From Treponema sp. (GTDB lineage Bacteria > Spirochaetota > Spirochaetia > Treponematales > Breznakiellaceae): a stretch of DNA of 58,408 nucleotides. Positions 2,652 to 54,512 of the stretch are shown piece after piece. Numbering within the stretch: position 1 is the stretch's first letter; every line of letters starts with the position of its first letter. The notes under the pieces were generated by a model that saw only the letters and a program-made list of their open reading frames with translations, made no database searches and was not told the origin of the DNA. Both the position numbers and the translations under genes were made by a program. The stretch is from positions 1 through 58,408 of the forward strand of contig JAISMJ010000093.1 of NCBI GenBank assembly GCA_031276815.1, in the 5' to 3' direction.

Positions 2652-2742
2652 TAGTCATACCGTATTTTTCCATTATGCCGCCTCAAGATTTTTATATTCA
2701 ATAGTATCTTGCCGATTGCTATAAAATTCTTTCCGTCCATAA

Positions 2743-28661: not shown

Positions 28662-28704
28662 AGCATGTTTACCGCTGAATTCCTACTTTATATAAGGACG
28701 AAAA

Positions 28705-31040: not shown

Positions 31041-31052
31041 GAAGTGGAATTA

Positions 31053-38740: not shown

Positions 38741-39069
38741 TGTACTGTAGAGCGTTATCCGCTTTCATTGCGCCAAAAAGAACATGACGTCCGCGTTGTT
38801 TATTATGCGGATATATGTTTACCGGATGATGTAAAAAAGGTGTGCGTAAGGGCGCCGTTACCTTGTTGTGAAACATGGCGCGCAACATACGTGACAAAAA
38901 TGAACGTATAGGAAACATACTATACATCTCTGTTTCGTTGTATCCGCGCGATATGGCAATACATGGATTTTCTGTAAACACAAACAGAGACGTACAGGGG
39001 AAACAGCAGGCGGACATATTGAAGCAGGGAAACCCCATTGGATGCGGCGAAGAGCGGGTACTCATGCCG

Positions 39070-39115
39070 GCGCCCGCTTGAAACGCGGTTCAGGGACGGC
39101 GTTTCAAGCGGGCGC
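39070..39115 (-). terminator. Strong hairpin closing the 54.3->39.1 kb operon
   Basis: A 17-bp perfect stem (GGCGCCCGCTTGAAACGC / GCGTTTCAAGCGGGCGCC region) with a 12-nt loop, 25 nt past the stop at 39140. No U-tract. Confidence 0.55.
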
Positions 39116-39139: not shown

Positions 39140-40849
39140 CTATTGTATGGTAAACGTTGATTCCGCCATGCGGCTGTTTTTGTACCATAGTTCTATGCGG
39201 TATGTTCCTCTGCGCCAATGTCCCGGCGTTGCGCCACCCCAGCCGGTAGTACGCTCCGTACCGCTGCCCGCGTTAATATAAAAGGAAGAACTAAAACTAT
39301 ACCCGTCCGGCGAAGATGTTCCGGTAGAGAGCGCGCCATTCGGATGAAAGATTTTTATATAAAGCTCATACGTTCTCGCGCTGGAAAGAAACGATTCATA
39401 CCTAATCTCCGTATACAAATAGGTTGACCGTGACGAGATAATAGCATCGCCGGGGTTATCCCCCTGATTGAATACCCGTATGCGGGTTATTGAAAAGGCG
39501 GGATATGTTGCCAAAAACCGGTTCGCCGTATTCGTAGCGTCCGCTAATTCACGTTGAGTAGTATCTAGTTGAGCGTTAGCGTTCTCCAAGTCATCGCGCA
39601 GCGTAGATACTTGAGTACGAATACCGGTTAGTTCGGTTTCAGCATCGCTTAATTGCGCGCGGACAGCGGTTAGTTCGGCTTCGGCATCGCGTAAGCGCGA
39701 CTGAAGGGCATACAATGCGCTTTCTTTTTCCGCTATCTCCGCGTATAAAAGATCGCCCTTACCATACCATTTTACCGCATACACGATACAAACAATGACG
39801 GCTGTTATAAGTGCGGTAATAAGAAGCGCGGCTATGCCTTTACTGATACGGACAGCGGCGTCATCACACGGTTGCTGAACATGCGGCTGCGAGGAGGGTA
39901 GGGCGGGAACGGGTTCTTTTTGGCGCGGCAGCCGTCCGTTTTTTTCAATCGTACACCACGGACACGCAGCCGCTCCGCCGGCATAGTAATGATTGGTACG
40001 GTTCACACAGAGCGTCAGACCGTTTAGGAGTCTTTCAAGCGCGGCATACCATGCGTCTCCTGAAGGCGTCTCTGCCGGTTCAGTACGCCCTTCAATAAAA
40101 GCCCCGCGGAATAACGTGTGTATTTCAGCCGGTAAAGAAGCGAACAGGGGCGCATACGCGGGTATATCAACGGTTATATCTGTGGGAGAAATGGAAGGAT
40201 GCGCTCCATTCATCAGCAAACGAAAAATCAGCGTCGCCAATGCCGCGTCATCCTGTTCTTTCGTACATACCGGCAGCGGTTCCCATGCTTTTTGTTCCCC
40301 CTGAAGCTCCGGCGTACTGATCGTTGCCGCGTGTGATTCACACGGGAACACGTTTCCGGTTTTGTCTGTGATATGAAAGGAATCCGCGCCGGTTACGGTA
40401 ATACGTCTGGTATCCGGATCAACGAGTATCTGTCCGGCGTGCAGGCGCCCGATAATCTGCCCTTCCTTATGCAAATCGCGAACCGCTCTCGCGGTGTTCT
40501 TTGCTATGGTAACGAAGAATGACCACGGTTTCCCCGCGCATGTATCGAAGATAGTCGATACGTTCTCTTTACCCGTTGCTTTAGGCATAACATAGCCGGC
40601 AAACGTCCACTGCGTAGGCTCGTATACCACATCAAGCGGCCATGCGTATTGTTTCATGTCAGGAAAACGCAGCGCGGTCATTGCAAGCAATTTCTGTTCT
40701 TTTTCCGCCGTCCGTGTATCCGGCTTGTATATCGCGGCTACCACGTCGCCATCTTCGACTACGGTGTAAAGGTCGCTCCCGTCTTCACTCGTAAACGGCG
40801 TATCCGCCGCCGTATAGATTTTACCTGACAGAGCGACATATATGGACAT
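39140..40849 (-). CDS. Membrane-anchored YegI-like protein-kinase-fold protein with a degenerate catalytic loop; extracytoplasmic coiled coil plus beta-rich domain
   Basis: 569 aa with VAAIYKP (VAIK-like Lys42), IIGRLHAGQILV (aligns to xxGD/HRD-L..xN-ILV with Arg at the catalytic Asp position), GADSFHI (DSF variant of DFG), CESHAATISTPELQG (TPE = APE motif) and CPWC. One TM helix (IAALLITALITAVIVCIVYAV). Then a heptad-rich LRDAEAELTAVRAQLSDAETELTGIRTQV and a ~120-aa beta-rich tail. Confidence 0.65.
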   Translation of the reverse strand: MSIYVALSGKIYTAADTPFTSEDGSDLYTVVEDGDVVAAIYKPDTRTAEKEQKLLAMTALRFPDMKQYAWPLDVVYEPTQWTFAGYVMPKATGKENVSTIFDTCAGKPWSFFVTIAKNTARAVRDLHKEGQIIGRLHAGQILVDPDTRRITVTGADSFHITDKTGNVFPCESHAATISTPELQGEQKAWEPLPVCTKEQDDAALATLIFRLLMNGAHPSISPTDITVDIPAYAPLFASLPAEIHTLFRGAFIEGRTEPAETPSGDAWYAALERLLNGLTLCVNRTNHYYAGGAAACPWCTIEKNGRLPRQKEPVPALPSSQPHVQQPCDDAAVRISKGIAALLITALITAVIVCIVYAVKWYGKGDLLYAEIAEKESALYALQSRLRDAEAELTAVRAQLSDAETELTGIRTQVSTLRDDLENANAQLDTTQRELADATNTANRFLATYPAFSITRIRVFNQGDNPGDAIISSRSTYLYTEIRYESFLSSARTYELYIKIFHPNGALSTGTSSPDGYSFSSSFYINAGSGTERTTGWGGATPGHWRRGTYRIELWYKNSRMAESTFTIQ

Positions 40850-40860
40850 ATACGTTTCCC

Positions 40861-41979
40861 TTATTCATACTGCTGTATCAGCGCTTCCAACTCGCGCTTA
40901 TGTAAGCCTGCGTTCTTATACGTCTCCAGAATCTTTGTAAGAACAAACGTATTTTTATGGAGATATTTCGCAACGGCTTGGAGAATATGGCGCATCTCTT
41001 CATATTCGCCGCTAACGATCCGCGCACATTCACCGCACATGGTCGCTATAGTTTCTTGTTTTGTCTTGTTGTTGTCTTCAAAGGATTTCAGAGCCGCTTC
41101 CATTTTTACTGAGTAGTTGCCTATGGCATCGGTGTACGCTTTTGGAAAGGATTGAATAGCGGCGCACTTAAAGGTCAGCGCATGTAAATTTGAGAGAATA
41201 GCGTCTATGTTCTTCATAAGTTCTTCATCGACCATACGGTTTTGAGCGAAAGAATCCTTAAAAGAAAGATGGATATCTTTAAGCAGCGCTTCACTCTCGC
41301 CGCAATAGCGAAGCGCTGCTGCGGAATAATCTAATTTAGAAGCGAATTGTTCAAAGCTGGTTTTAACGGTATGCGCCGCAACGCCGAGCGCATTAAACGC
41401 CGCTTCACAGCGCTTTTTTTCTGTAAGCAGGTGAGAGCACTCTTCTTTTTGGAGCGCTAGATAGGTTTTGATAGCTTCATTCACGTAATCCAGAGCGGCT
41501 GTCGTCCCATTCGCCTGTTTCTGAAAGCGTTCTTCTGTTTCGGAGATAGCGGATAACAGCGTTGCATTGATTTTTCTTATTTCGTGATCCGTGTCAATAT
41601 ACGCAAAATCGGCTTTATATTCCCATGCGGGCGAAGCGCTATCATCATATACAACAGGTGAAAAGACATGTTCCCGGATTTTTCCGGTAATACATGAAAT
41701 AATAACAAAAATTCCACTGAGAATCAGCACTGTCATACCGTTACTTTCAAGCAAGAGCGCAAGCGCGCACGAAGATACCGTTAACACAGCAAGCGGAATA
41801 TTTGCAAGATCAAAGAGTCTTGACAGGATAGGAGCGCGCGGAATTAAAAAAGTAACAATTTTTGAAAGAAGGGGCGCATGAGGCGCCGTCCGCTTTATGA
41901 TTGATAGGTAATCAAGAACTAATCCCGCAACTCCTGACAACACAACAACAATATAAGCAATAACTGCTATATATATCAT
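40861..41979 (-). CDS. Membrane protein (N-terminal TM helices) with an all-helical cytoplasmic region; operon member
   Basis: 372 aa. Hydrophobic segments lie in residues 1-110 and the rest is predicted helical. The ATG overlaps the upstream stop (ATGA at 41976-41979). Confidence 0.7.
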   Translation of the reverse strand: MIYIAVIAYIVVVLSGVAGLVLDYLSIIKRTAPHAPLLSKIVTFLIPRAPILSRLFDLANIPLAVLTVSSCALALLLESNGMTVLILSGIFVIISCITGKIREHVFSPVVYDDSASPAWEYKADFAYIDTDHEIRKINATLLSAISETEERFQKQANGTTAALDYVNEAIKTYLALQKEECSHLLTEKKRCEAAFNALGVAAHTVKTSFEQFASKLDYSAAALRYCGESEALLKDIHLSFKDSFAQNRMVDEELMKNIDAILSNLHALTFKCAAIQSFPKAYTDAIGNYSVKMEAALKSFEDNNKTKQETIATMCGECARIVSGEYEEMRHILQAVAKYLHKNTFVLTKILETYKNAGLHKRELEALIQQYE

Positions 41980-43991
41980 AATCCATCCTTATGTAACATG
42001 ACGTTCAATTCGCCCAGATTGTTGATATAACCGTTATCAGATATTTCACATGGCTTTATTATTTCAATCCTGTTTTCCCCGTCAGATTTTATTATATTTT
42101 TTGTATACAGCTCCCGTATATGTGTTACGTTATTATAATAATGCGGGTTTGGAAAGATATATTTTTTACCGCCTTTTCTGTTTGAAATCCATTTTGTTTC
42201 CGCAAAAGATTCGAGAAGGTTCTGTTTTGTTTTTATCTTAAAATCACCCACCAGATAATAAAACGTATCAAGCGGAAGTTTTGTCCCCGCCTTGGCTGCC
42301 GCCCATGCGTTAAATTCAGCAACAATAGCATCCGTACCGCCAGAATCGCCGGAAGAAGCGCGCTTCTTTTCATGAGCAGGGGCAGTTTCTATAGTATTCA
42401 AACGTCCGTCGATAGTATGTATACGATAATCAATACTTTCGATACTAGATTTAACCTCGTTTATACGTTGCTGAAGATCAAAGATTTGTACCGGCGCCTG
42501 TTCAACACGTTCCGCATCGCTTTGCAGTTTTTGCAGTTGCTCCGCCATTGCTTGAACAGATACAGCGCTGCTTTGCTCATACAGTGTAGCGAGTTGTTCA
42601 TAGGAAGATAATTTTGCATGGGCATCATTGAGTTTTTGGGTGAAATTAACATAACTCCGTATTTTATTCATAAAATTCGGAGCAAGAGTAAATTGTGTAA
42701 AATCATATACAGAATCGCACAGTCTATTCGTTGAATTCGAGGTTTCTGTGATTACCGCTTCTAGTTCCGCATTGGTTTTTCCAAGTTTTTTTAGTTCTTG
42801 GGAGAAAGAATCGTTTAGAGTATGTAAAGCTTCTATTGTATCACGCTCAAAGTCAATAGAAACAGCTTCGTTGAATGTTTCACAAATTGCAAAGAATTTA
42901 TCATAACTTGAACGTAAGTCATCAGCGTTTTTCTTGATTATAGTGTCAATAGAGGTAAAAGTACCGCTGATAGTATGTTCGAGCGAGTCCGTTATCCGTT
43001 CCAGATGGTGTAATTCAACAGAAAATGCATCGCTTTTATAGGCGGAAAGAAGCTGTTTTAGTTCCAATAAAAGGGCGGCATTTTTATTCATCGCGTTAAT
43101 GTCGACTTTTGTTTTGTCTGCAAGTTCGGTACATTTCGGCATTATAGCGTTAATATGTTCGCATATAACGCTCAAAGTACTATTCAGTTCGTTTATTTTT
43201 TTCAGAGCATCATTAAAGAAACCGGTAATGTTTTGCCATGTTATAACCTCCGTACCGCTTTGAAGCTTGATAAATTCATCTAATTTTGCCGTCATATCCG
43301 TTGTGCTTTGCAAAAGCATATCGCATCGTTTAGTATTCGTTGCTGAAAATATGTTTACAGCGGACAGTAGCCGGTTAGTGTCTTCCGATTTCAAGGCATT
43401 TAACACGGCGGGTCTCAACTCTTTTATCGTAATTAAGTCAAAGTTCGCAATTTTATCATACCAGCGCGTATATAAGGCATCGGTAAATAGCGCGACTTTG
43501 CTATCCGCGTGTCTTTTTAGCAACAGGATACATATAAAGCAAAAGGTATGTATCATAAACAAAAAAGACAACAAGCTGGTTTTCGTAGATGCCGCAATCA
43601 CTCCCGCATACATCACATACAATGAGGCTATAAACGGGATATGCATGAGAAAAAATACGTATGCTACAAATTTATCGCACTTTTCTTTATAGTTTGATAT
43701 ATATGCGTTTTGATTCACTTTCTTTCCAACTTTGGCGTCTGTACACATACGTCCTAATATTTCAATGATAAAATTGTTTTTCATGATGTTAGATTGTTTG
43801 TTTACAAAATCATTAAAATTGCTATTCATTTTAATAACGTTTTGATTTTTATCGATCACCGGCGCAAGTTTCAATCCTGAGAGATCGAGCAGTTCCTGTG
43901 TTGTTCTTGTCTTTTTAGAAAAATAAATAACCGGCAGTATATATAATAAAAGAAACCACAACGCATAGATAACAATTATTTGTTCTGACAT
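41976..43991 (-). CDS. Polytopic membrane / coiled-coil protein ending in the shared ~112-aa C-terminal domain (divergent copy)
   Basis: 671 aa. TM segments near residues 6-25 and 105-160, then a long helical region. The C-terminus reads EFNAWAA..GTKLP..FYYL....K.....L....ETKWISN..GGKKYIFPNP......I.ELY.......RIEIIKPCEIS.NGYINNLGEL. AAGGAG SD. Confidence 0.75.
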   Translation of the reverse strand: MSEQIIVIYALWFLLLYILPVIYFSKKTRTTQELLDLSGLKLAPVIDKNQNVIKMNSNFNDFVNKQSNIMKNNFIIEILGRMCTDAKVGKKVNQNAYISNYKEKCDKFVAYVFFLMHIPFIASLYVMYAGVIAASTKTSLLSFLFMIHTFCFICILLLKRHADSKVALFTDALYTRWYDKIANFDLITIKELRPAVLNALKSEDTNRLLSAVNIFSATNTKRCDMLLQSTTDMTAKLDEFIKLQSGTEVITWQNITGFFNDALKKINELNSTLSVICEHINAIMPKCTELADKTKVDINAMNKNAALLLELKQLLSAYKSDAFSVELHHLERITDSLEHTISGTFTSIDTIIKKNADDLRSSYDKFFAICETFNEAVSIDFERDTIEALHTLNDSFSQELKKLGKTNAELEAVITETSNSTNRLCDSVYDFTQFTLAPNFMNKIRSYVNFTQKLNDAHAKLSSYEQLATLYEQSSAVSVQAMAEQLQKLQSDAERVEQAPVQIFDLQQRINEVKSSIESIDYRIHTIDGRLNTIETAPAHEKKRASSGDSGGTDAIVAEFNAWAAAKAGTKLPLDTFYYLVGDFKIKTKQNLLESFAETKWISNRKGGKKYIFPNPHYYNNVTHIRELYTKNIIKSDGENRIEIIKPCEISDNGYINNLGELNVMLHKDGL

Positions 43992-44009
43992 AAATACTCC
44001 TTGTGTTTT

Positions 44010-45425
44010 TCACAATAATGTTAATTCTCCCGGATAATTGATAAAACCGCTGCCGGACATCTCGCAGGGTTCCGTTATTCTAATTTTATTCTGCCCTTTA
44101 GACCGTAACTTTGTTAGATCCATGTTATAAAGCTCCTTTATATCGGTCATTTGGTCAAAGGAATTTGGATTTGGAAAAAGATATTTTTTGCTACCGTTCT
44201 TATTTGAAATCCACTTAGTCTCCATTGCGGACGGTGTAAGAGGCTGCTCTCTTCTTACCCGCATATCATGTTCTAAATAATAAAATTCGTTGGGCAGTTT
44301 AGTTCCCGGGTTGGCTGCCCACGCATTAAAAGCGGAAATAGTAGTATCAGTTTTATTAACGGTGCTCATACTATTCGGCGGCTCACTGATTTTCTTGGGA
44401 AAAACCGGTTCCGCCATGTTTGCATTGTCTTCAAGGTTTTTCACACGGGTATTAATACTAGTTAGATGGCGTGTTGTTTTATCGGCAGCTTCGCTAATAC
44501 GTTGAATTTGTGCTGTTAATGTTCTAATTTCTAACGTGATGTTCTCTTGGTTTTGATTTGGGCGAGCAAACTCTGATTTTCTCATTGATTCCTCAATACT
44601 GTTGAGACGCGATTCAAGATTCAGAAGGCTGTTGTTAATAGTAGTATTGATTATAGATATATCGTTTATCAATTCTTTATTACTATTTTGTATATCATAT
44701 TCTACATGTTTTAGACCTACCTCAATAGTTTTGATACGTGACTCAATATTCGGAATCCATTTGTTAATAGTAGTAACCGTATGTCTTGTTTCTTTATTAC
44801 TATTCTGAATATCATATTCTACATCTTTTAGACGTTCCTCAATAGTTTTAATACATGCGTCAAGATTCACAAGTCTATTGTTAATAATATTATTGAGCGT
44901 AGATATGGTATTTTTTATATTGGAAATATTACTTTCTATCTTTTCCAATCGTTCCTCAATAGTATTACTATTGAGTGTAGCAGATACGGCATTTCTTGAT
45001 ATTTCTCTATTATTTTGGATATCATCTTCTATCTTCTTCAGGCGTTCCTCAAGTTCTTCATATTTTTTCAACTGTTTTACAGGCAGTATAGTTCTATGAG
45101 CATCAATGCTAGGCATTTCTTGCCCTAAAAGCATTGCCAGATATGATACGGTTTCAGCGGCTTTTTCCCATGTTACGCTGTTTTTATCCTGAAAATTTTG
45201 TATCAGTCCCGAGAATTCGAGAGTCTGTATTGTTTTTTCATGTTCCGATGCTTCCCTCACTCTATCGAAATATCCTGCATTAACGGCTTTAAGTAATAAA
45301 TTAACTTTTTCTTCGTATTCGCCCCCAAAGGCGCCCAACTGTTCTTTTATGCTGTCTTCAAAATCAGATTTTGATTTATCCTTTGATAGGGTTCTTATTT
45401 TAATCAGAATGTCCTGAAATGTCAT
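44010..45425 (-). CDS. Soluble coiled-coil repeat protein ending in the shared C-terminal domain
   Basis: 471 aa with no TM helix. Internal ~37-40-aa repeats (LK.VEYDIQNSNKE twice, LKKIEDDIQNNRE once). C-terminus AFNAWAANPGTKLPNEFYYLEHDMRVRREQ...ETKWISNKNGSKKYLFPNP...ELY...KIRITEPCEMSGSGFINYPGELTLL. Confidence 0.75.
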   Translation of the reverse strand: MTFQDILIKIRTLSKDKSKSDFEDSIKEQLGAFGGEYEEKVNLLLKAVNAGYFDRVREASEHEKTIQTLEFSGLIQNFQDKNSVTWEKAAETVSYLAMLLGQEMPSIDAHRTILPVKQLKKYEELEERLKKIEDDIQNNREISRNAVSATLNSNTIEERLEKIESNISNIKNTISTLNNIINNRLVNLDACIKTIEERLKDVEYDIQNSNKETRHTVTTINKWIPNIESRIKTIEVGLKHVEYDIQNSNKELINDISIINTTINNSLLNLESRLNSIEESMRKSEFARPNQNQENITLEIRTLTAQIQRISEAADKTTRHLTSINTRVKNLEDNANMAEPVFPKKISEPPNSMSTVNKTDTTISAFNAWAANPGTKLPNEFYYLEHDMRVRREQPLTPSAMETKWISNKNGSKKYLFPNPNSFDQMTDIKELYNMDLTKLRSKGQNKIRITEPCEMSGSGFINYPGELTLL

Positions 45426-45464
45426 AAAACGCCTTTAAATTACTAAAAACAAGCGTATTCGCTC

Positions 45465-46937
45465 CTAGAGTAATGTTAATTCTCCATGGTAGTTGATATA
45501 GCCGCTGCCGGACATTTCGCAGGGCTTTGTTATTGTGATTCTGTTTTGTCCTCTGGGTCTTAACTTTGTTAGATCCATGATATAAAGCTCACTTATATCG
45601 GTCATTTGATCAAAGAAATTAGGATTTGGGAAAAGATATTTCTTACCGGTCTTACTGGCGTCTTTATTTGAAATCCATCTAGTCTCTGTTGCAGACGGTG
45701 TAAGAGATTGCTCTCTTCTTACCCGCATATCATGTTCTAAATAATAGAAATTATCCGGCAGCCTGCTTATCGGATTACTTGCCCAAATATTAAAGGCAGA
45801 AACCGGATCGCTGGTAAAACCCGGCGTTTTTTCTGTGAGAGGCGAGAAGCTTTCCGGCTGTCTTTTATTATTTTTCAAATCTACGTTAATATCTCTAATA
45901 CAGGTATCAATATCCCAAACGCTCCTCTCTACTCCATCAAATCTTTCTTCAAGTTTTTCTTCAAGCTTTCGAATTTGATTCGGCGCTGTTTCAATATACG
46001 TCAGCGTTTTACCTTGATCTTTGTACATGATGAGCAAGGTATCCATTTTACTAGCTATCCCTTCTAATGCTTCTTGTGCGGCTTGGAGCCGTTTATTGTC
46101 GGCTGTAGATTTTATAAGAGATAGTATAGCTATGACAAGAGAGGCGGAAGCGATACTCCCTACCGCTATGAGCATGATCAGCAGAGCAAGAAATCTCTTT
46201 TCAGTATCCGCTACTTTACGTATATCAGCAACTACGGTATTAATTTTCTCAACGTTGGCTGTTACTGCCGTCCAATCTTTGTTTGTCTGGGCATTGCTGG
46301 CAGCAATATAGGACTCTGTACCAATTTTATACAACTCTTTATATTTTTTCTGAATTTTGCCTTCCACACCGTTAAGTTGTTTCTTAGCAGCCGCTAAAGC
46401 TGAAGAAGCAGCTTCAGCCATCTCTGTATCTGTCAGCGCACTGTCTATTGCCGTCATTGCGGCATCTAAAGCATTGCTCATTTCCGCAACAGTTTTTGCC
46501 GCTCCAATCTTTTCACGTCCTTCTTCCTTTATAGCAATAAGGTTCTTCCACTGATTTCCGGTGAAATCTTTCGCCGCTTTCTGTTTTCCAAAATAGTCAT
46601 GTAACGTATCTTGCGCCTCTTTTTTTCTTACATCAAGAATTGTTCCATAAATAGCATCTATCTCATTTTCTGCATTTGAGAGAGCTTTTTGTATCGCTTC
46701 ACTATCTTTTGCCTTGTCAATCGCATTCTTACCCTTTTCCCTTATGCCGGTAAGTTTTTTTTTATCAGATTCAGTAAAATCCTTTTCTGCGCCTCCTCCG
46801 ATATACGATTCCAACTCGGCTATTGCAGCTTCCTGTTTCTTGACTATATCATCAGTCCCTTCGGTTTCAGCGCCTGCCATCCATAAACATCCAAAAACAA
46901 GTACTAGAGCGAGGCTTGTAATTTTAGTCTTTTTCAT
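45465..46937 (-). CDS. Bitopic membrane protein: signal/lipobox, extracytoplasmic helical repeats, one TM helix, cytoplasmic coiled coil, shared C-terminal domain
   Basis: 490 aa. MKKTKITSLALVLVFGC (lipobox-like). A..I..A.T..E...AL..A...ID helical repeats. TM helix FLALLIMLIAVGSIASASLVIAILSLI. C-terminus AFNIWASNPISRLPDNFYYLEHDMRVRREQ...ETRWISNK...KKYLFPNP...ELY...RITITKPCEMSGSGYINYHGELTLL. Confidence 0.75.
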   Translation of the reverse strand: MKKTKITSLALVLVFGCLWMAGAETEGTDDIVKKQEAAIAELESYIGGGAEKDFTESDKKKLTGIREKGKNAIDKAKDSEAIQKALSNAENEIDAIYGTILDVRKKEAQDTLHDYFGKQKAAKDFTGNQWKNLIAIKEEGREKIGAAKTVAEMSNALDAAMTAIDSALTDTEMAEAASSALAAAKKQLNGVEGKIQKKYKELYKIGTESYIAASNAQTNKDWTAVTANVEKINTVVADIRKVADTEKRFLALLIMLIAVGSIASASLVIAILSLIKSTADNKRLQAAQEALEGIASKMDTLLIMYKDQGKTLTYIETAPNQIRKLEEKLEERFDGVERSVWDIDTCIRDINVDLKNNKRQPESFSPLTEKTPGFTSDPVSAFNIWASNPISRLPDNFYYLEHDMRVRREQSLTPSATETRWISNKDASKTGKKYLFPNPNFFDQMTDISELYIMDLTKLRPRGQNRITITKPCEMSGSGYINYHGELTLL

Positions 46938-46982
46938 ATAGGTTCCCCTTAAAAAATAGTATCATATTTTATGGAACGGGTA

Positions 46983-49900
46983 TTATGATTTATATCCCGA
47001 ATTACTGAATTCATCAAGAAACACTTTAAGCATAACAATAAACGGAGGATCAAAACGATTTTCAGTTTGCAATACTCTTTCAATCTCTGTTCTTATTTGA
47101 TTCCAGAGCGTTTGTCTCTCTCTTTCAAACCATCCTCTTTGTATAATAGGCATATCTCCACGCGTTTTACTCGCAATTCGATTAAAGAAGTCCAAGAATT
47201 CACCGAATTCCGAAAGTTCCCTGTCTATCGTTATGCTTAATATATTTGGATTTATAAAAAATCCGTCATTATACACATCAACAAAGACGTCTTTTTTATA
47301 GCTATGCGCTACATCCCCCTGCGTTACGGTAATATTGCACCCGATAAATACTTCGGGATCGGCGAGTTTAATGGTGTTTTTTTGATTGCCGTTAGTATCC
47401 ACATCGCATATCATACCTATCGCCGTCTCGGTTTTTGCCGAGTCCGGAGAAAATTGATCAAGGAATCTGATTTGTATGCCATTGGGATATGTGGTGCTTA
47501 TCGTTTTCTCCGCTATAAGGTTTTGAGCTTCAGCATAAATAGTTGAACAGTATGCGCGTATCCAGTCCGTTAGTTTTGAACCTTTTCCAGACAGCCCAAG
47601 AACAATTTGCGTAATATCATTATCAATTTTCTTGTCAGGATCGTCCGAATTCAACAAAGCCGCAATAGCATTTGCTAAATAATATATTAACCCCGAATAC
47701 GCGATAAATACGCTGTGCTTGAAATTTTTATAAGCTTGTTTATCATCGCCTTCAAGACTATCAAGCCTATTCTTAAAAAGACTATAATATTCAAACAGAA
47801 CGGTCTCGATAAAATATTTAATTTTATCTCTTGAATATTCTGTATTTCTTCCTCCATATTCCAGCATGGTATGAATTCCATCTTCAATTCTATCGGTACG
47901 CACCACATCCATTACACTCTTTATTTCTAACAGTTTTTCAAGCGGAGCAACAAACATATCACGGGATGCAAAACGGATAGAGGTTTGGAAGACGTGTTTT
48001 GTTTTGATCCAGAGTGAAATATCGCTTGTATTTCCCCCTATATCAACGCAAAGAAAAATCGTCTGTCTTGAGTTTCTATTTCGGAAGTAAAAAGCCGCCG
48101 CAATACTTTCTGTAATAAGATTTCTCTCGTTGAATACAATATCAATACCGGTATCACTGCGGAGTCCTGTAATAATGGCGTTAAGACTGGTACCGAAATC
48201 TGTTTTTGTCCCCTGACTAAACGCAGTTGGATACGAGAAAAACCAGTTTATTTTCCGCACGCCTTTTTCCGCCGCATTATAAACTATGTGGGTCAATAAC
48301 TGATTGAGATACTTGCCGGCATACGAGAGATTGGTTTCCCATTTGATATTGGTAAGAAGCCTATCGCGTCTCCCTTCGGTACTGTTTAATATTCTAAAAT
48401 TTTCAAAGTTATGCCAGAAAATACGCCCCGTTTCAAAAATAGTAGGCGACGCGGAATCCCGTGTCGTATCCATTTTCTCATAGGTAGTTGCATAGCCGTT
48501 CTGCCTTAAATAGTGCGGGTCTATGAAATAGTTCTCTACATTTCTTTTATCACCCGTATTGCTGAGAATCACCATATCATTTTTTATCTCACGTTTTTGA
48601 GGTTCACTGCTTCCGTCCACCCAATGATATTCCGTGTTTAATTGTATAAAAGCAGGGAGAGACCCGCTATTGTCGGTGGTATAAAATGCCGTCGATGTTG
48701 TTGTGCCAAAATCAAACCCTATGTTCCATACTATACTTCCCGGCTGAACTTTTTTAGGCTCAGCAAGAAAAACAGCCCCCATATAGATAGAACTATGTGC
48801 GCTTATTTTTTGTTTTAACTTTAATGCAACGGGAAGCGCTCTGTATCGCCTGTAATATATATCATTAACTACGCTGCTGACAGTGGAAAGTTTTTGTTGT
48901 CCTAACAGGTAATTATTAGTTGTAAAAAAAGGTTCGATTTCCAATACTGGAATTCCTCTGAAGTTAGGCTCTACGCAAAAGAAATTATAGCGCTGCCATG
49001 TATTTTCGCCGTTTCTGTCAAGTATTTCCGCATACGGCCACGCCGCCCAGAACGGCACATAGTTTTTATCAAAAATGAAGCATATTCCTGTTCCCTCACT
49101 GCGGTCATTGTCGTCAGAATCTGCGCCGCTTTTAATCTTCTTAATGGTATATTCTTTTGTTACAGAATGTTTTCCCATGGCGTCGCTCAATGCGAGTCCC
49201 AGCGTAATGGTTACTTTTTCATTGTCAGCGCGGATAGAAAGCATATCATTAATCTGCTCCATGGTATACCATTCAAGAAGTTTTTCATGTATGGGCCATA
49301 TAACCTCATAATCATCAATAGAACGATTCGGCAGCGTGTGAAAAACAGCCTCGCTACCTTTATTAATCATTACCATCGAGTCACCAAGCAGGTCGTTTTC
49401 ATACATAAGCGTAACGCCATCTATTGTTTTGCCTGAATACTCCTGTATATTTGCCGCATGTATCTGATTATACAACATAGTATCGGTAATAAAGATAGTT
49501 GACGCCTGCTGGCTTGAAGAACTGATCCCGCAAATAGTAACGCCGATGAGGGCTACTCTTTGTCCACGCGTACCGGCTAACAGGAAGGGCAGCTCTACCG
49601 TGCGGTTGCTGGTAATGCTTACTTTGTCAAACAGGTCATACACGCTTTCTACTTCGCCGCTGCTCGTTAGGGAGATATCATGATTCGGCGTTACTTTGCC
49701 AATATCTGCGATAAACTTTTCCACCAACTTTTGAAGAGCTTTAATGATACTCCGCTGATTTCGCGTGGCTTCTTTTGTAATACAAGCTTTTAATTTATCC
49801 AAAAACAATTTCAGCGCATACTTCGCATCCCGGTTCATAGATTGGCTTTGGTTTTTAAAGTAATTATCGGGACTTAAAAATTTTCCGCTTTCGTCAATTA

Positions 49901-52001
49901 TTGTCGGAGCCATCGTATACAGCTTTGTCTTGATCGCAGCCGAATACGAATAGGCAGGACAAACAATCGTATTATGGGCAAGAAAAGCAATGACTTCATC
50001 TTTTTCTCCATCGGACAATGAAACACAGCACGCATTAATCCAGTTTGGATTATCAAAAATATAACTATTAGGAATAAGCGTTTCCTTCATGGTATTTAAG
50101 AATTCTCCGTCGCCCACGGTTCCCAGCCGCAATACTCGTAGCTGCAACCCTGCACGTTCATATAGATTGAGTTTTCTAAGCGCAAGAAGGGTAAGCAGTC
50201 CGCACCATTGATTGTACGCGGTCTTGTTTAATGACGCGAACTTTGGTTCGACTAGCGTCAGCTCATTCACAATAAATATTGACCATGGAGAAGGAATCGA
50301 CACATCGCTTGCAACGAATTTATCCCCCTGAACATTAGGAAGCCCATCAGCAATATTTATAAGCAGCGTAGGCTCGCTTTTTGACCACAGCTTATTCTGA
50401 TCGGCATCGGGCTTGATAAACGTTACGCCGTTTTCTTTTGACAAATAAGGGACAATGACAAAGTCGTCCCTCGTTGTTTTAGCTTTTCCGCCGAAAAGTC
50501 TCAGTTCCTGTTTGGTAACTAAGTCTCCTAGCGTAACAAATAAAGAGGGAAAACGCTTGCCGCTGTTGCCTACAGGCAACGGTTTTTTACCGGCTATATC
50601 GCTATAAATTTTAGCGGAAAGTTTTTGATTTGTATCGTTATATACCAACTCCTTGAAATTATCAATTTCACCATTTTCAACCGGCATATTATCAAAAAGT
50701 GTAGGATACCCCGCATTAAAGAGCTTGACTCTGGCGTCAGGCGTCCATTTCATCCTACCGGTGTTTTGGTCAATGTCATCTAAATTCTTTTTATGGAGAT
50801 CGTACATCCACTTTACGAAAAGCTCTAAATAACCGCGGAGATTTTCATATATGAAATTCTGATTCTCATCTTTATCGGTCTGTATGCCCCCGTCATAGTT
50901 TTTTTCCCACCTGCCGGCAGCCGTCCCATTTTTTAGTTCCCCATAGAGTATTTTATTGTAAAATACGGCGATCTTCATAAGTTTCTGCATCTTCAAGGGC
51001 AAATCCGAATCAATATCCTGAATCATCTTCCATGTATAATAGTATTCGCTGCCGCTCGCTTCTCTTTGCGCTGTGATGATTTTACTGTCTTGCCGGTTAT
51101 TGTTTTCTTTTACAAAATCAATGATGGACATCGCCGCAAAAAGTTCGATGGGATGCGTTTTATTGCGCTGATTATCAGAACCCCGCGAGGCAACTTCGTT
51201 TGAAAAGTTTATCTCAGGCTCGCCTATAACATATAACGCATCCGTCTTTTTATACTGTTCCTGAACATAGTAATAATACAGCGCGGTCTTTGCTTTTACC
51301 TGAAAATTATTTGAATTGGGTTGCAGTCTTCCTTCTTCCGCTATTTCTCCAATAGCCTTGAAGTAAGGCGTCAATATAATAGCGGCGAATTTAAAATCAG
51401 CCTCTCTTTTGTGCGCTTTAAGATCGTCAAGCACGACAGGTATTGCGGATGCGCCTGTTCCTCCAAATATCGATCCCATGACAACGACAAAATCGTTTGC
51501 GTTTATTTCCGTTTTAAATTGCCGCCAGATTTCATCATGGCTCAAGATATTCTCAACAACCAGCGTTCCTATGGACGTATGACCATAAAAGCCTTGATTA
51601 AATTCAGCGTCTATTTCATCATCCGTATAAAGGAAGCGAATAAACGTATCATCATCGCTATCTCTGTATTGCGGTATCTTAAAAGCCTCGCTTATACTTT
51701 TCTTTTCATCCTTGTAAAGACTTATATTGGTCGACGGACTTATTGATTCAACGCTTATGAGACCAAGTTCATTACCCGCCGCACTGAGCGCATTATAGAA
51801 TCGTTGATACGAACTTAATACGACGTTTGTATGTTTCAGATTCCCATTTGAAACATCCGCATCAATGGTCATAATCCGTATGACGTCAATGTGGCTTGAG
51901 CCTAAATTTCCCTTAAAAGCGCCGCTTGCGGCGAGATGAATAACGGCTGTTACGAGTTTATGACCCGTTCCGCCTATCCCAATAATATGAAGTTTTGACA
52001 T
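46983..52001 (-). CDS. 1672-aa protein: N-terminal tubulin/FtsZ-like GTPase motifs, ~650-aa unassigned middle region, C-terminal actin/Hsp70 (ASKHA)-like ATPase motifs
   Basis: N-terminal motifs: IIGIGGTGHK (aa 6-15; GIGGTG at nt 51963-51980), NQGFYGHTSIG (aa 135-145) and GSIFGGTGASA (aa 176-186, nt 51444-51476; compare the tubulin signature GGGTGSG). C-terminal motifs: IGFDFGTTTS (D1097-S1103, nt 48693-48713, phosphate-1 like), VDIGGNTSD (D1320-D1327, nt 48021-48044, phosphate-2 like) and IVLGLSGKGS (G1469, nt 47580-47597, adenosine-motif like). AAGGAG SD. Confidence 0.7.
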   Translation of the reverse strand: MSKLHIIGIGGTGHKLVTAVIHLAASGAFKGNLGSSHIDVIRIMTIDADVSNGNLKHTNVVLSSYQRFYNALSAAGNELGLISVESISPSTNISLYKDEKKSISEAFKIPQYRDSDDDTFIRFLYTDDEIDAEFNQGFYGHTSIGTLVVENILSHDEIWRQFKTEINANDFVVVMGSIFGGTGASAIPVVLDDLKAHKREADFKFAAIILTPYFKAIGEIAEEGRLQPNSNNFQVKAKTALYYYYVQEQYKKTDALYVIGEPEINFSNEVASRGSDNQRNKTHPIELFAAMSIIDFVKENNNRQDSKIITAQREASGSEYYYTWKMIQDIDSDLPLKMQKLMKIAVFYNKILYGELKNGTAAGRWEKNYDGGIQTDKDENQNFIYENLRGYLELFVKWMYDLHKKNLDDIDQNTGRMKWTPDARVKLFNAGYPTLFDNMPVENGEIDNFKELVYNDTNQKLSAKIYSDIAGKKPLPVGNSGKRFPSLFVTLGDLVTKQELRLFGGKAKTTRDDFVIVPYLSKENGVTFIKPDADQNKLWSKSEPTLLINIADGLPNVQGDKFVASDVSIPSPWSIFIVNELTLVEPKFASLNKTAYNQWCGLLTLLALRKLNLYERAGLQLRVLRLGTVGDGEFLNTMKETLIPNSYIFDNPNWINACCVSLSDGEKDEVIAFLAHNTIVCPAYSYSAAIKTKLYTMAPTIIDESGKFLSPDNYFKNQSQSMNRDAKYALKLFLDKLKACITKEATRNQRSIIKALQKLVEKFIADIGKVTPNHDISLTSSGEVESVYDLFDKVSITSNRTVELPFLLAGTRGQRVALIGVTICGISSSSQQASTIFITDTMLYNQIHAANIQEYSGKTIDGVTLMYENDLLGDSMVMINKGSEAVFHTLPNRSIDDYEVIWPIHEKLLEWYTMEQINDMLSIRADNEKVTITLGLALSDAMGKHSVTKEYTIKKIKSGADSDDNDRSEGTGICFIFDKNYVPFWAAWPYAEILDRNGENTWQRYNFFCVEPNFRGIPVLEIEPFFTTNNYLLGQQKLSTVSSVVNDIYYRRYRALPVALKLKQKISAHSSIYMGAVFLAEPKKVQPGSIVWNIGFDFGTTTSTAFYTTDNSGSLPAFIQLNTEYHWVDGSSEPQKREIKNDMVILSNTGDKRNVENYFIDPHYLRQNGYATTYEKMDTTRDSASPTIFETGRIFWHNFENFRILNSTEGRRDRLLTNIKWETNLSYAGKYLNQLLTHIVYNAAEKGVRKINWFFSYPTAFSQGTKTDFGTSLNAIITGLRSDTGIDIVFNERNLITESIAAAFYFRNRNSRQTIFLCVDIGGNTSDISLWIKTKHVFQTSIRFASRDMFVAPLEKLLEIKSVMDVVRTDRIEDGIHTMLEYGGRNTEYSRDKIKYFIETVLFEYYSLFKNRLDSLEGDDKQAYKNFKHSVFIAYSGLIYYLANAIAALLNSDDPDKKIDNDITQIVLGLSGKGSKLTDWIRAYCSTIYAEAQNLIAEKTISTTYPNGIQIRFLDQFSPDSAKTETAIGMICDVDTNGNQKNTIKLADPEVFIGCNITVTQGDVAHSYKKDVFVDVYNDGFFINPNILSITIDRELSEFGEFLDFFNRIASKTRGDMPIIQRGWFERERQTLWNQIRTEIERVLQTENRFDPPFIVMLKVFLDEFSNSGYKS

Positions 52002-52030
52002 AGTTCTCTCCTTATTAGTACCCTACGCTC

Positions 52031-52062
52031 GACGGAGGTTTCCCGCATGGGAAATCTCCGTC
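52031..52062 (-). promoter_or_regulatory. Intercistronic hairpin just upstream of the giant gene
   Basis: GACGGAGGTTTCCC-gcat-GGGAAATCTCCGTC, with 13 of 14 bp paired and a 4-nt loop. Lies between the 52105 stop and the 52001 start. No U-tract. Confidence 0.45.
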
Positions 52063-52104
52063 ATATTACCACGAATCCGCGCTCCTGCTCCCGCATACAA
52101 ACAA

Positions 52105-52587
52105 TCACTTCCGGTAGGTAAACCAGAATGCCCGTGCATACGCGGGCGTTACAAAAAGCGCGCCTGTTATGAAAGATACCGGAAAAGCAACCGCGTGAAG
52201 TGCGATAAGTACTCCAAACGCCGCAGCATCAAGACCGAATCCAATCGTATATACAATGGGCAGAATGACCATAAACAAAAGAGTTATAAAAAAACCCATA
52301 TAGAACTGCATTTTTTTTGAAGCGGCATTCGCTCCCCCTAACGCGGCGGGAATAATTATTACACAGAGCGCATGTATTATAATCGCGATGATGACGCTTA
52401 GAATCATACAATCCCGTCCGTTTTCCTCCCATATATATACGCCGAAAGATTTTTCTCCTATAACAATAAATAGGGCGTTAAAATTTTTCGGATCAATAGT
52501 AATAATGTACAGTATAAATGCCCCAATCGGCAACAAAATCAACCATGGCAATGCTTTAAGTGAATCTTTCACATAAGTTCCAAACAT
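52105..52587 (-). CDS. Small polytopic membrane protein (about 4 TM helices); operon member
   Basis: 160 aa from the ATG at 52587, which is preceded by GGAGGAG. The track extension to 52683 lacks an SD and adds a non-hydrophobic leader. Confidence 0.65.
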   Translation of the reverse strand: MFGTYVKDSLKALPWLILLPIGAFILYIITIDPKNFNALFIVIGEKSFGVYIWEENGRDCMILSVIIAIIIHALCVIIIPAALGGANAASKKMQFYMGFFITLLFMVILPIVYTIGFGLDAAAFGVLIALHAVAFPVSFITGALFVTPAYARAFWFTYRK

Positions 52588-52696
52588 AATCTTTCTCCTC
52601 CAAAATAATATGCGAGGGGTTCCGCAATAAACCCCTCGTGTAAGAACGTACAGCGCTCTACCGTCCGTATACGCTTCCGTCAAACGCCGGTTCTCA

Positions 52697-54334
52697 TTAG
52701 TTTTTTCTCACAAGGTACAAAACGCCGGAATACACCTCGTTATTGGCGTTTCGTATCTTGTTAAACGCTTCTTTTATATAGCCATAAATGGTAGTAAGAT
52801 GCAATACTTTGATCTGTCCGCCCGCGGCAACGCTTGCTTCAAGTTCTTCAATATCAGAAGCACTTCTATCGTAAACCCATGCGGGGATTTTGCCGTGGGA
52901 CCTCACCGTATACCCTATCTTATAGTACCCTTGTATGAGATTTTTGTTTTTAGTTTCAATGAGAAGGTATAGATAGTCAGTACCGACTTCGGCGTCTACG
53001 CTGGCTTCCAGTTCATCAGGCGCGACGTCGACCGCCGCCGTTACGATAGTTCCAACGGGTCTCGCGTACGGTTCAAACGCCGATGGTTCGCCGCGTGTAT
53101 TTTTTCCCCCGTCAAAGTATTCTACGCGCACATCCACGGAGTATTCAAATTCCGTTATATCCCCTTTTTCAACGGGCAGCGCGGCTATGTACCTCGAACC
53201 GCTATCACCGATTGTAAGATAGGCTTCCGCATCAGAGCGCTGCAGAACATACTTGACGCTCCGCTCTTCATCTTCACCGCTTTTAGGCGGCGTATCGCGT
53301 TCCGCCCAACTAAGTAAGGTTGTCTTGCGAAGATTAACTTTTTTATATTTATAATCGCCGGAATTAAACACGGTTTCTCTTCTTGTGAATTCTTGACCAG
53401 ACGGCAGCAGGAGATATGGCTTACCCTGATACAACGCATCGTTTATAAAGAGAGAGAGTTCAAAATCAGTCCCTTTCATCATGCCTTTAATTTCGAAATC
53501 TCTCGCCAGCCCTTCGCTGTACGCTTGTACGCTGCCGGTATCTCCGACTATAAAAATAAAAAACGTCGAAGACCCGTTCTTTACCGGAATGTTCTTTTGA
53601 TTATTACTCCCGGACACATCATTGATATTTCCATTAAATGATGACGTTACGGCAAAAATCGCGCCTGACATGCCCCGTTCAAAGGCGTCTTGAAACAACT
53701 GATGAAAATACAGGTGCGCTTTATTATTCTCGTAGAGATCGGTAATAACGATATTCAGACAGTTTTGCGTTATTTCCGGCGCGGTATAGACCGAGTCTCT
53801 GATATAGTCAGCCACCGACCCAAACGGTTGACCTTCTCCATCAGAGTTTTTCACGGAATATACCACCTGCCTGTTGGTACCGGGTCCGTAACTGTACTTG
53901 TTATAACCGTAGAACTGGGGCTTTCTCAGTTCGTTTAATACTACCGGGGAGAACGGTATCTCGCATATCACCAATCCGCCGAATTCGTAATACAGCGATT
54001 CCGCCTGAGAAGCCCATAGTTGTCCGCCAACCGTCCATACGCTCTCTATCGCCTTTGTATAGGTGGATTCTTCAACGTGTCCGGGAACAACCATACGCCC
54101 GATCGCATCTACTTTGAACTGATCATTCTGGGTAAACCCCTGCATCGACTCTGTTCTATCAAAAAAGTAGCGCACCTGCTTTACCGGTGAAGGCGGTCCC
54201 GGGGGGACGTCTTCCGCCGGACGAGGAGTTTCCGCAACATAGCAAGGACCGAGCCTGTTACATGCCGCAACCATACACGCCGCAACAAGACACGCGCCTA
54301 TTCGGAATATATATGCTCTTTTTGCCATTTTCAT
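52697..54334 (-). CDS. Lipoprotein with a tentative vWA-like (MIDAS-containing) domain; first gene of the operon
   Basis: 545 aa. Signal plus lipobox (LVAACMVAAC). VRYFFDRTESM (D59-x-T-x-S63, nt 54146-54160) resembles the MIDAS DxSxS on a beta strand. CLNIVITDLYEN (D199) resembles the distal MIDAS Asp strand. Confidence 0.45.
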   Translation of the reverse strand: MKMAKRAYIFRIGACLVAACMVAACNRLGPCYVAETPRPAEDVPPGPPSPVKQVRYFFDRTESMQGFTQNDQFKVDAIGRMVVPGHVEESTYTKAIESVWTVGGQLWASQAESLYYEFGGLVICEIPFSPVVLNELRKPQFYGYNKYSYGPGTNRQVVYSVKNSDGEGQPFGSVADYIRDSVYTAPEITQNCLNIVITDLYENNKAHLYFHQLFQDAFERGMSGAIFAVTSSFNGNINDVSGSNNQKNIPVKNGSSTFFIFIVGDTGSVQAYSEGLARDFEIKGMMKGTDFELSLFINDALYQGKPYLLLPSGQEFTRRETVFNSGDYKYKKVNLRKTTLLSWAERDTPPKSGEDEERSVKYVLQRSDAEAYLTIGDSGSRYIAALPVEKGDITEFEYSVDVRVEYFDGGKNTRGEPSAFEPYARPVGTIVTAAVDVAPDELEASVDAEVGTDYLYLLIETKNKNLIQGYYKIGYTVRSHGKIPAWVYDRSASDIEELEASVAAGGQIKVLHLTTIYGYIKEAFNKIRNANNEVYSGVLYLVRKN

Positions 54335-54373: not shown

Positions 54374-54402
54374 ATAATACACTAGCCGGAACTTTTACGC
54401 AA
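54374..54402 (-). promoter_or_regulatory. Candidate sigma70-type promoter for the operon
   Basis: Minus strand reads TTGCGT (54397-54402), 17 nt, TATTAT (54374-54379), ~40 nt upstream of the ATG at 54334. Confidence 0.3.
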
Positions 54403-54404
54403 GG

Positions 54405-54512
54405 GCTTTTATGCAAAGATTGTTAGCTTTTATGCAAAGGCTTGCGATATAGGGCGTCCGCTATGTGTAGTAGAAGTTCCGCTACCTGTAGTAGAAAGTC
54501 CGCTGTACACGA
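54405..54512. promoter_or_regulatory. Short direct repeats with 21-bp phasing upstream of the operon
   Basis: GCTTTTATGCAAAG occurs at 54405 and 54426. TCCGCT-N3-TGTAGTAGAA occurs at 54457 and 54478, with a partial third copy at 54499. Successive copies are exactly 21 bp apart. Confidence 0.5.

Follow-up and report, generated by a model that had tools for sequence, protein, structure and literature searches.

A minus-strand operon of a Treponema contig encodes a tubulin-like GTPase fused to an actin-like ATPase and belongs to a widespread five-component gene family

The operon and its proteins

The window analysed here is a stretch of 58,408 nucleotides of the Treponema sp. contig JAISMJ010000093.1 (assembly GCA_031276815.1; positions 1 to 58,408, forward strand), and the subject of this study is a block of eight genes on its minus strand, between positions 39140 and 54334. 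A sequence-only reading of the window had described these genes as co-directional and tightly packed. This eight-gene observation is confirmed: the eight open reading frames (ORFs) lie where that reading had placed them, with lengths of 545, 192, 1672, 490, 471, 671, 372 and 569 amino acids (aa) for genes 1 to 8, and the successive distances from gene 3 to gene 8 are 45, 39, 18, -4 (an ATGA overlap) and 11 nucleotides (nt). The gaps between genes 1 and 2 (about 109 nt) and between genes 2 and 3 (about 103 nt) are wider. Here we show that gene 3 is a tubulin/FtsZ-like GTPase joined to an actin/Hsp70-like ATPase, and that the block is a fused, elaborated branch of a widespread uncharacterised system of five components, designated A to E. 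The genes and their parts are as follows (TM, transmembrane segment).

52697..54334, minus strand: gene 1, 545-aa lipoprotein (component A) with a MIDAS-like N-terminal alpha/beta domain and a beta-sandwich C-terminal half
52105..52587, minus strand: gene 2, small 4-TM membrane protein (component B) with four predicted hydrophobic segments
50592..52001, minus strand: gene 3 residues 1-470, Tubulin_2-type tubulin/FtsZ-like GTPase domain (component C), from motifs and family Pfam matches
48747..50591, minus strand: gene 3 residues 471-1085, a linker and then alpha/beta and beta-rich domains, from the AlphaFold2 model
46986..48746, minus strand: gene 3 residues 1086-1672, ASKHA (actin/Hsp70-type) ATPase with helical insertions (component D), from motifs and Foldseek
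45465..46937, minus strand: gene 4, 490 aa, with signal/lipobox, helical ectodomain, TM 253-271, cytoplasmic coiled coil and shared C-terminal domain (45468-45818)
44010..45425, minus strand: gene 5, 471 aa, soluble coiled coil with the shared C-terminal domain (44013-44363)
41976..43991, minus strand: gene 6, 671 aa, 3-TM protein with a long cytoplasmic coiled coil and the shared C-terminal domain (about 41997-42347)
40861..41979, minus strand: gene 7, 372 aa, 3-TM protein with a helical cytoplasmic domain; clade-specific, found in 8 related loci
39860..40849, minus strand: gene 8 residues 1-330, YegI-type kinase-like domain and CPWC zinc ribbon, from hhalign and the family alignment
39143..39859, minus strand: gene 8 residues 331-569, TM 338-356, coiled coil and a beta-rich domain predicted to be non-cytoplasmic

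The two NTPase halves that had been proposed for the giant protein encoded by gene 3 are borne out by invariant motifs, by Pfam matches of the family and by Foldseek. These fold calls are firm because they derive from family-level evidence and not from scans with the single sequence, which returned only sub-threshold matches to Tubulin, Tubulin_2, FtsA and Hsp70. For the tubulin-like half, the criterion was a T1 loop (G-x-G-x-x-G) together with a T4 signature ([SAG]GGTG[SAT]G), and gene 3 has both, in the form of a T1-like GIGGTGHK at residues 8-15 and a T4 signature GSIFGGTGAS at residues 176-185. In 69 sequences drawn from many phyla, residues G10, G11, G13, G176, S177, G180, G181, T182, G183 and A184 do not vary. 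The window copy falls below the Pfam cut-offs for both PF13809 (18.2 bits vs 27, E 1.6e-3) and PF00091 (24.1 bits vs 33, E 4.9e-5); across the family, PF13809 is matched by 67 of the 69 members (E <= 0.01; best 2.3e-11) and PF00091 by 32 of them. Two family members that were tested lie above the curated Pfam cut-off, and two full-length homologues of the giant protein carry a precomputed PF00091 match. The 57 homologues of the giant protein are nearly all 1,595-1,758 aa long, and stand-alone proteins about 500 aa in length are homologous to its first 500 residues. Alignment of the tubulin-like family with the single sequence of E. coli FtsZ by hhalign paired the T4 loop alone, and a DNA search of E. 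coli genomes gave no match.

The C-terminal half of the giant protein carries the three motifs by which an ASKHA domain was recognised, namely phosphate-1 (DxGxT), phosphate-2 (DxGGGTxD) and adenosine (GxxG): the corresponding D1097-F-G-T-T, D1320-I-G-G-G-x-x-D1327 and G1469-x-x-G1472-K-G are invariant in 55 sequences. An AlphaFold2 model of residues 473-1672 has a predicted local distance difference test (pLDDT) score of 83.9 and a predicted template modelling (pTM) score of 0.75, and Foldseek matched its ASKHA part to MreB, DnaK/Hsp70, actin and ParM in the PDB with a probability of 1.00 and E values of 1e-7 to 1e-6; 412 PDB matches were found at E <= 1e-3. At the sequence level, hhalign aligned the domain with YegD around the phosphate-2 motif (80% probability), and the weak FtsA-family matches, including those by hhalign, are confined to the phosphate-2 region. 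Between the two NTPases, residues ~473-572 form a linker that has low pLDDT in the block-wise scores and that coincides, judging from ORF coordinates, with the point at which the gene is split in other phyla. The alpha/beta and beta-rich domains that follow, up to residue 1085, could be assigned to no family and have no Pfam match. The two great families of cytoskeletal NTPases are the tubulin-like and the actin-like ones, and to our knowledge no described natural protein carries both.

The gene 1 family is the universal upstream partner of the tubulin-like gene, and an iterated profile finds it in 65 of 82 loci. Gene 1 itself had been called vWA-like. Its MIDAS-like (metal ion-dependent adhesion site) motifs, D59-x-T61-x-S63 and T198-D199, are invariant or nearly so in 50 gene 1-family sequences, and four residues, the lipobox C25, D59, S63 and D199, are invariant in these sequences from several phyla. 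In an AlphaFold2 model of moderate confidence (pLDDT 68, from 10 sequences), the motif residues are located where the predicted strands 53-59 and 192-198 end, and the elements run strand, helix, strand, strand, helix, helix, strand, helix, strand, helix, strand before the beta-sandwich, an order that we take to be compatible with a vWA fold. The motifs and the order of elements therefore speak for the vWA-like description, whereas five independent tests gave no significant support for it: none of the 50 family members matches a vWA Pfam model at E <= 0.1, a sequence-profile search of the family against the PDB gave nothing at E <= 10, Foldseek with this moderate model gave nothing at E <= 1e-3, and hhalign against YegL, a kinase-linked vWA domain and a five-sequence vWA alignment paired only the two MIDAS strands, with a probability of <3%. 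In view of these failed tests, "lipoprotein with a MIDAS-like site" is the safe description of gene 1.

The homologues of gene 2 in the equivalent position measure 155-187 aa, and their alignment with it begins only at its residue 33; the probable start is therefore the ATG at 52587, which gives 160 aa, instead of the TTG at 52683 that opens the 192-aa ORF. Small-TM families that are specific to particular clades are joined by hhalign (families F2 and F14 at 90.6%, F8 and F14 at 77%).

Genes 4 to 6 have a common C-terminal domain, as had been noticed from the sequence; it spans about 115 residues, 48 of which are invariant among the three copies. A HMMER search of 1.84 billion representatives with this domain retrieved 188 proteins, 184 of them at E <= 1e-10, and the domain is C-terminal in nearly all of the 150 matches listed out of the 188. 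A place for the domain within a broader known family was considered and rejected, as this full search returned only the 188 proteins and no tail of remote relatives. The domain aligns by hhalign with the C-termini of the E family (78%, E 1.8e-5, 73 columns) in matching register, compared with at most 0.5% for reversed or unrelated controls, and because of this in-register alignment genes 4 to 6 are, on sequence grounds, most likely three diverged E paralogues. The copies have three topologies, gene 4 being bitopic with an ectodomain, gene 5 soluble and gene 6 polytopic. Topology predictions for genes 2 and 4-8 agree with those described before; gene 1, the N-terminal part of gene 4 and the C-terminal part of gene 8 are predicted to lie outside, and genes 3 and 5, together with the E domains, inside. 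Also in agreement with the sequence-only reading, Pfam-type scans of the eight proteins found no nuclease, protease or phosphatase domain. Gene 6 has no MotA_ExbB match, and its hhalign alignment with the MotA-like family of distant relatives (35%) covers the coiled coil only; with a value of <10% for gene 7, the idea that genes 6 and 7 are a ZorA/MotA-like stator and its MotB-like partner, respectively, was rejected. Matches to SMC, Rad50, ZorA, LmuB, JetC, ATG and tropomyosin (in gene 5, to SMC, Rad50 and ZorA) were disregarded because all of them are confined to coiled coils.

The YegI-like fold lacking the catalytic Asp that had been reported for gene 8 was found again. Residues 1-330 have 18 homologues, 12 of which carry a precomputed PF00069 match, and hhalign pairs the profile of the family with E. 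coli YegI with a probability of 100% (E 1.3e-41, 312 columns, CPWC ribbon included); the family also matches 167 PDB kinases. The family consensus reads GGEG ... VAKIFK ... GDLNPxN ... DTDSFH ... APE. The window copy keeps the Lys of VAKI and the DSF motif; its Gly-rich loop is degenerate (EDGS vs GGEG), and its catalytic loop reads GRLHAGQ where the family has GDLNPxN, so that Asp is replaced by Arg and Asn by Gln. Because of these replacements and the degenerate loop, the domain is, by its sequence, a pseudokinase that is predicted to be catalytically dead. Several related operons (L004, L005, L006 and L019) have the C-terminal half of gene 8 as a separate last gene of 243-337 aa. The kinase-like half was found in none of the related loci fetched, and its closest homologue sits in an unrelated neighbourhood beside a PP2C gene and an FtsK-like ATPase gene; for these reasons it is a local acquisition outside the core. 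One other homologue (P0074) is a YegI-type kinase fused to a bona fide vWA domain (PF00092), and a link between kinase and vWA therefore exists inside that kinase family.

The block has a G+C content of 41.7%, as opposed to 49.4% for the remainder of the window. Within the block, the values are 35.5% for gene 5 (the lowest), 36.9% for gene 6, 40.3% for gene 3, 47.0% for gene 1 and 53.1% for the kinase-like part of gene 8, a spread consistent with horizontal acquisition of the core and local acquisition of the kinase domain.

The five-component family and its relation to known systems

Co-location in other genomes, on which the operon interpretation had been made to depend, was observed. The order gene 1, gene 2, gene 3, a gene of the gene 4/gene 5 type, gene 6, gene 7 is repeated in 8-9 independent contigs with protein identities of 25-65%, and none of the neighbouring ORFs of the window recurs alongside the block in related loci. 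The block is, with high confidence, one conserved system with the folds described above. In a scan of one genome per species, which gave >599 pattern matches, relatives are encoded in at least 555 species-representative genomes. Clustering the operon genes of about 80 loci defined a core whose gene order, A-B-C-D-E, is constant across about 70 loci from many phyla:

A: gene 1-family lipoprotein
B: 4-TM protein of about 160 aa
C: tubulin-like protein, about 500 aa
D: protein of about 1100 aa with an ASKHA domain at its C-terminal end
E: one to five paralogues, about 340 aa or longer, sharing a small C-terminal domain

The groups in which the core was seen include Cyanobacteria, Acidobacteriota, Poribacteria, Clostridia, Selenomonadales and Bacteroidales. 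For the first five of these and for others, C and D are encoded separately, at a distance of 10-60 nt from each other, and RefSeq annotates them as "tubulin-like doman-containing protein" and "hypothetical protein". The C-D fusion is limited to the clade containing the window, which looks, from the names of its metagenome-assembled genomes, like one of termite-gut spirochaetes (Treponemataceae, Termitinemataceae, Spirochaetaceae), with a few bins labelled otherwise. Genes 6 and 7 and the C-terminal module of gene 8 are additions of this clade after the core, and the peculiarities of the window are the fused C and D, the triplicated E and the dead YegI-type domain added to gene 8. Acidobacteriota and Poribacteria have other additions, namely a MotA_ExbB protein with a long helical tail (13/16) and an OmpA/MotB-like protein (10/10). 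Throughout the family, downstream genes are lineage-specific, fast-diverging and expanded by paralogy. Six copies are plasmid-borne; a search of viral contigs gave no relatives. Among 134 genes in the flanks of related loci, housekeeping and two-component genes predominate, and integrases, restriction-modification genes and transposases do not figure among the commonest families.

Several individual loci deserve mention. Some operons of Poribacteria and Acidobacteriota end in a staphylococcal-nuclease-type (SNase) or K+-channel-like (Ion_trans_2) gene (L029 17783-18376, L042 19833-20426 and L022 18765-20609; also L058, L065 and L072), and the products of these end genes are possible effectors. 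ARC6-like IMS-domain proteins, which we take to be relatives of the cyanobacterial/chloroplast FtsZ-ring factor, are encoded within a few kb of several cyanobacterial copies (L085 17875-19713, and two further flanks). The most distant fused homologue (L003; 26% identity, 1758 aa) adjoins a resolvase gene (684-1274); its downstream genes differ, and they include one for an 813-aa protein with a weak MORN match.

With regard to described systems, the present system is related to the Tubulin_2/FtsZ-like operons with vWA, kinase and MotA/OmpA partners that were predicted in 2010, of which it is a branch. Those operons, named after FtsZl1 (PF13809), include vWA proteins, kinases, a distinct GTPase, and MotA/TolQ-like and OmpA proteins, and Makarova and Koonin predicted that they form a system for membrane remodelling (PMC2875224). 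The prediction has never been followed up experimentally, and a 2023 phylogeny takes Tubulin_2 proteins merely as an outgroup (PMC9871819). Both systems, themselves uncharacterised, have a divergent tubulin/FtsZ GTPase with T1 and T4 loops and no recognisable FtsZ/tubulin C-terminal domain, an upstream gene for a secreted or membrane protein with a MIDAS-type motif, and partners that comprise MotA/ExbB-like and OmpA/MotB-like proteins (in the present case in distant relatives), Ser/Thr kinases and unassigned membrane proteins. Neither a T7 loop nor a C-terminal polymerisation domain was found in FtsZl1 by Makarova and Koonin, and genomes with FtsZ-like families retain conventional FtsZ as well (PMC2875224).

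The differences are equally clear. The FtsZl1 architecture consists of an FtsZ-like N-terminal domain, a long coiled coil and an alpha-helical C-terminal domain in about 1000 aa, and the proteins in the accessible part of the 2010 table are 763-1208 aa long with a coiled coil and an alpha-helical C-terminus (PMC2875224). Gene 3 does not have this architecture, because alpha/beta, beta and ASKHA domains, and not a coiled coil and helical C-terminus, follow its tubulin-like part; a tubulin-like unit of about 500 aa is instead paired, and in the window fused, with an ASKHA ATPase protein. The 4-TM protein and the E adaptor family are core components here and are not in the 2010 description (PMC2875224), and the upstream partner has no vWA profile match. 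The accessible part of the FtsZl1 neighbourhood table contains no operon of the present layout, although one Magnetospirillum entry has a DnaK-like neighbour (PMC2875224). A literature search for a tubulin-like plus actin/Hsp70-like operon or defence system found nothing beyond this work (PMC2875224) and the outgroup use (PMC9871819). The view that no described system has this composition is therefore too broad as far as the operon class is concerned, since the 2010 operons are related, but it holds for the ASKHA partner and the adaptor family, which are not described there. What is new here is the C-D fusion, the ASKHA partner, the 4-TM protein and the E family; the FtsZl1-type operon class had already been predicted.

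The remaining comparisons are looser. A tubulin-family GTPase encoded beside an actin-family ATPase is also seen in the FtsZ-FtsA pair, which works with bitopic coiled-coil membrane proteins, and in the MamK/FtsZ-like pair of magnetosome islands. This likeness is an analogy of composition: there is no specific sequence relationship, as hhalign aligns only the T4 loop with FtsZ and the phosphate-2 region with FtsA, and the present operon has no division or cell-wall genes. E. coli yegD-yegI-pphC-yegL resembles it in that the N-terminal domain of gene 8 is a clear YegI homologue, CPWC ribbon included, and in that a MIDAS-motif protein and an Hsp70/actin-fold domain are present in both. The PP2C and the active kinase that characterise the vWA-kinase-PP2C triads (TerY-P and YegI-PphC-YegL) are, however, missing here: the kinase is dead and, among related loci, unique to the window, gene 1 has no vWA profile match, and the ASKHA domain is not specifically YegD-like. 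The Zorya proteins ZorA/ZorB recall the MotA_ExbB long-tail protein and its OmpA-family partner in distant relatives from Acidobacteriota and Poribacteria, but the window has no MotA_ExbB or OmpA domain and no ZorC, ZorD or ZorE-type effectors, and scores with the ZorA/ZorB models are far below the cut-off, those of the distant relatives' genes included. Single-sequence Pfam, NCBIfam and PADLOC scans of the eight proteins gave nothing above curated cut-offs, the matches in PADLOC-DB 2.0 being limited to coiled-coil SMC-like ones and one of E 0.014 on the ASKHA motif. The block belongs neither to the YegI-PphC-YegL triads, nor to Zorya, nor to any PADLOC system.

Possible functions of the system

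Our confidence in any function is low overall. The reading that we favour, with a probability of about 50%, is that the operon encodes an envelope-spanning, NTP-driven, cytoskeleton-like machine that is built on the two NTPases and that organises or remodels the envelope. The E domain would dock the adaptors on a cytoplasmic GTPase/ATPase hub, and the varied N-terminal parts of the E paralogues (ectodomain plus TM, soluble, polytopic) would tie this hub to the membrane and to periplasmic partners, the coiled coils and TM segments of the adaptors linking it to the gene 1 lipoprotein and to the outer domains of genes 4 and 8. Once assembled at the membrane in a nucleotide-dependent manner, the hub might then organise or remodel the envelope, by analogy with FtsZ-FtsA and its bitopic partners or with PilM/GspL-type platforms. 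The GTPase and the ATPase would act together because they are fused here and strictly adjacent elsewhere, and adjacency in hundreds of genomes together with the fusion is strong evidence of such joint action. An envelope function is further suggested by the flanks of related loci, which are of a housekeeping and two-component kind and not mobile or defence-related, by the NtrC-type regulator directly upstream, and by the MotA/ExbB-like and OmpA/MotB-like proteins of distant relatives. It also agrees with the independent prediction that the related FtsZl1 operons are membrane-remodelling systems (PMC2875224).

Several points weigh against this proposal. All its functional steps are inferred; the tubulin-like domain was not modelled, and no T7 loop or polymerisation element was identified in it. 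The vWA assignment of component A, plausible as it is, has no statistical support, and the E-domain homology is moderate (78%), the docking role being a guess. Moreover, the patchy distribution, the occasional plasmid location, the low G+C of the block (41.7%), the fast-diverging downstream genes with their paralogue expansions, and the SNase and ion-channel genes that end some relatives' operons fit an accessory or conflict system equally well.

Such an NTP-dependent anti-phage or conflict system had been raised as an option in the sequence-only reading, and we retain it as the main, if unlikely, rival. The lipoprotein and the ectodomains would sense a perturbation of the envelope and the GTPase/ATPase hub would act as the switch, with the membrane proteins (genes 2, 6 and 7) as effectors or, in other lineages, the nuclease or ion-channel genes. 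In addition to the features just listed, including the six plasmid-borne copies and the contrast in G+C with the rest of the window, deep divergence, neighbours that are different in every genome, and the ZorA/ZorB-like architecture of the pair found in Acidobacteriota and Poribacteria speak for it. However, the ZorA matches are far under the family cut-offs, the window version has no recognisable effector domain, and PADLOC returned only coiled-coil artefacts and the one weak match to the ASKHA motif. It is because of this PADLOC result, the housekeeping genes that dominate the flanks and the absence of relatives from viral contigs that we prefer an envelope machine to a defence system.

Two further explanations appear less probable. 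The system could be a trans-envelope assembly or secretion platform, in which the ASKHA protein would be a scaffold of the PilM/GspL/FtsA type for the bitopic coiled-coil proteins, the lipoprotein would be their periplasmic partner, and the product would be a surface structure or an export route instead of a remodelled membrane. We consider this improbable. We know of no secretion platform with a tubulin-like GTPase, and neither the window nor the conserved core contains a secretin, a pilin, a secretion ATPase or another export component, even though the ASKHA fold, the several bitopic and polytopic coiled-coil proteins, the lipoprotein and the weak FtsA-family matches in the phosphate-2 region would suit such a platform, and one FtsZl1 neighbourhood in the accessible part of the 2010 table includes a pseudopilin (PMC2875224). 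The proposal of the sequence-only reading that the operon is an elaborated vWA and Ser/Thr kinase (and PP2C) signalling module of the YegI-PphC-YegL (plus YegD) type is, as an organising principle, largely refuted, and we give it very little credence. True, gene 8 is a YegI homologue, MIDAS-like motifs are present in gene 1, YegD can be aligned with the ASKHA domain around the phosphate-2 motif, and kinases are recurrent neighbours of FtsZl1 operons (PMC2875224). The kinase-like domain, on the other hand, is catalytically dead by its sequence and is found in none of the related loci fetched, and therefore it is not a core part; its nearest homologue lies in a different neighbourhood, the Pfam scan found no PP2C among the eight proteins, and Foldseek shows no YegD-specific link, as MreB, actin and Hsp70 are equally good matches for the ASKHA domain.

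Returning to the envelope machine, a bolder form of the idea, which we advance tentatively and with the odds somewhat against it, is that a tubulin-family GTPase and an actin-family ATPase form an obligate pair in an unrecognised, widespread five-component prokaryotic system, in which a dedicated adaptor domain and membrane proteins couple them, here as a single polypeptide, to a periplasmic MIDAS-type lipoprotein. If true, this would be a new dual-NTPase cytomotive or envelope-surveillance machine without a studied counterpart. New biology would emerge under either outcome, be it an envelope/cytoskeletal machine or a type of envelope-triggered immunity. Since the defined five-gene core is also present in cultured cyanobacterial strains (Picosynechococcus, Gloeothece, Arthrospira), the question is directly testable.

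Boundaries and surroundings of the operon

Two further features lie just outside the block:

54391-54439, minus strand: tandem repeat of CTTTGCATAAAAGC in three copies, two of them perfect and the third with 3 mismatches, at 57-105 nt upstream of the gene 1 ATG
39070-39115, minus strand: hairpin with a perfect 17-bp stem, between gene 8 and the next ORF, marking the downstream boundary

The hairpin corresponds to the one reported in the sequence-only reading. It has a folding energy of -46.1 kcal/mol (z-score -4.4 vs shuffles), is not followed by a T-tract and ends only a few bases before the ATG of the next ORF. The latter, a minus-strand ORF of 294 aa (38181-39065), begins a few bases past the hairpin; it has no Pfam match and no homologue in any related locus. 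A second, terminator-like hairpin (10 pairs, 6 of them G-C) followed by a T-rich tail lies on the minus strand at 52613-52638, in the gap between genes 1 and 2, where it may cause transcription to attenuate past the lipoprotein gene.

The promoter-like region that had been proposed at 54.37-54.40 kb could not be confirmed and is only an AT-rich stretch. Upstream of gene 1, scans for a sigma-70-type consensus and for a sigma-54 consensus, the latter prompted by the NtrC-type regulator next to it, gave no match, the whole region having fewer sigma-70-type matches than its shuffles. The two perfect copies of CTTTGCATAAAAGC at 54391-54439 are the only ones in the window, and the tandem copies may be a putative regulator-binding site. 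Just upstream of them, at about 54455-54500, lies a second pair of direct repeats (CTTCTACTACA..TAGCGGA). The gene directly upstream of gene 1, on the same strand at 54589-55965, encodes an NtrC-type sigma-54 activator/response regulator, and it is preceded by a minus-strand ORF of 710 aa (55986-58118) without a Pfam match. Expression of the operon is probably under local transcriptional control. Elsewhere in the window, further stretches of low G+C occur at 2001-4000 (37%) and 28001-34000 (42-44%), and the remaining 2-kb bins are mostly at about 47-57%.

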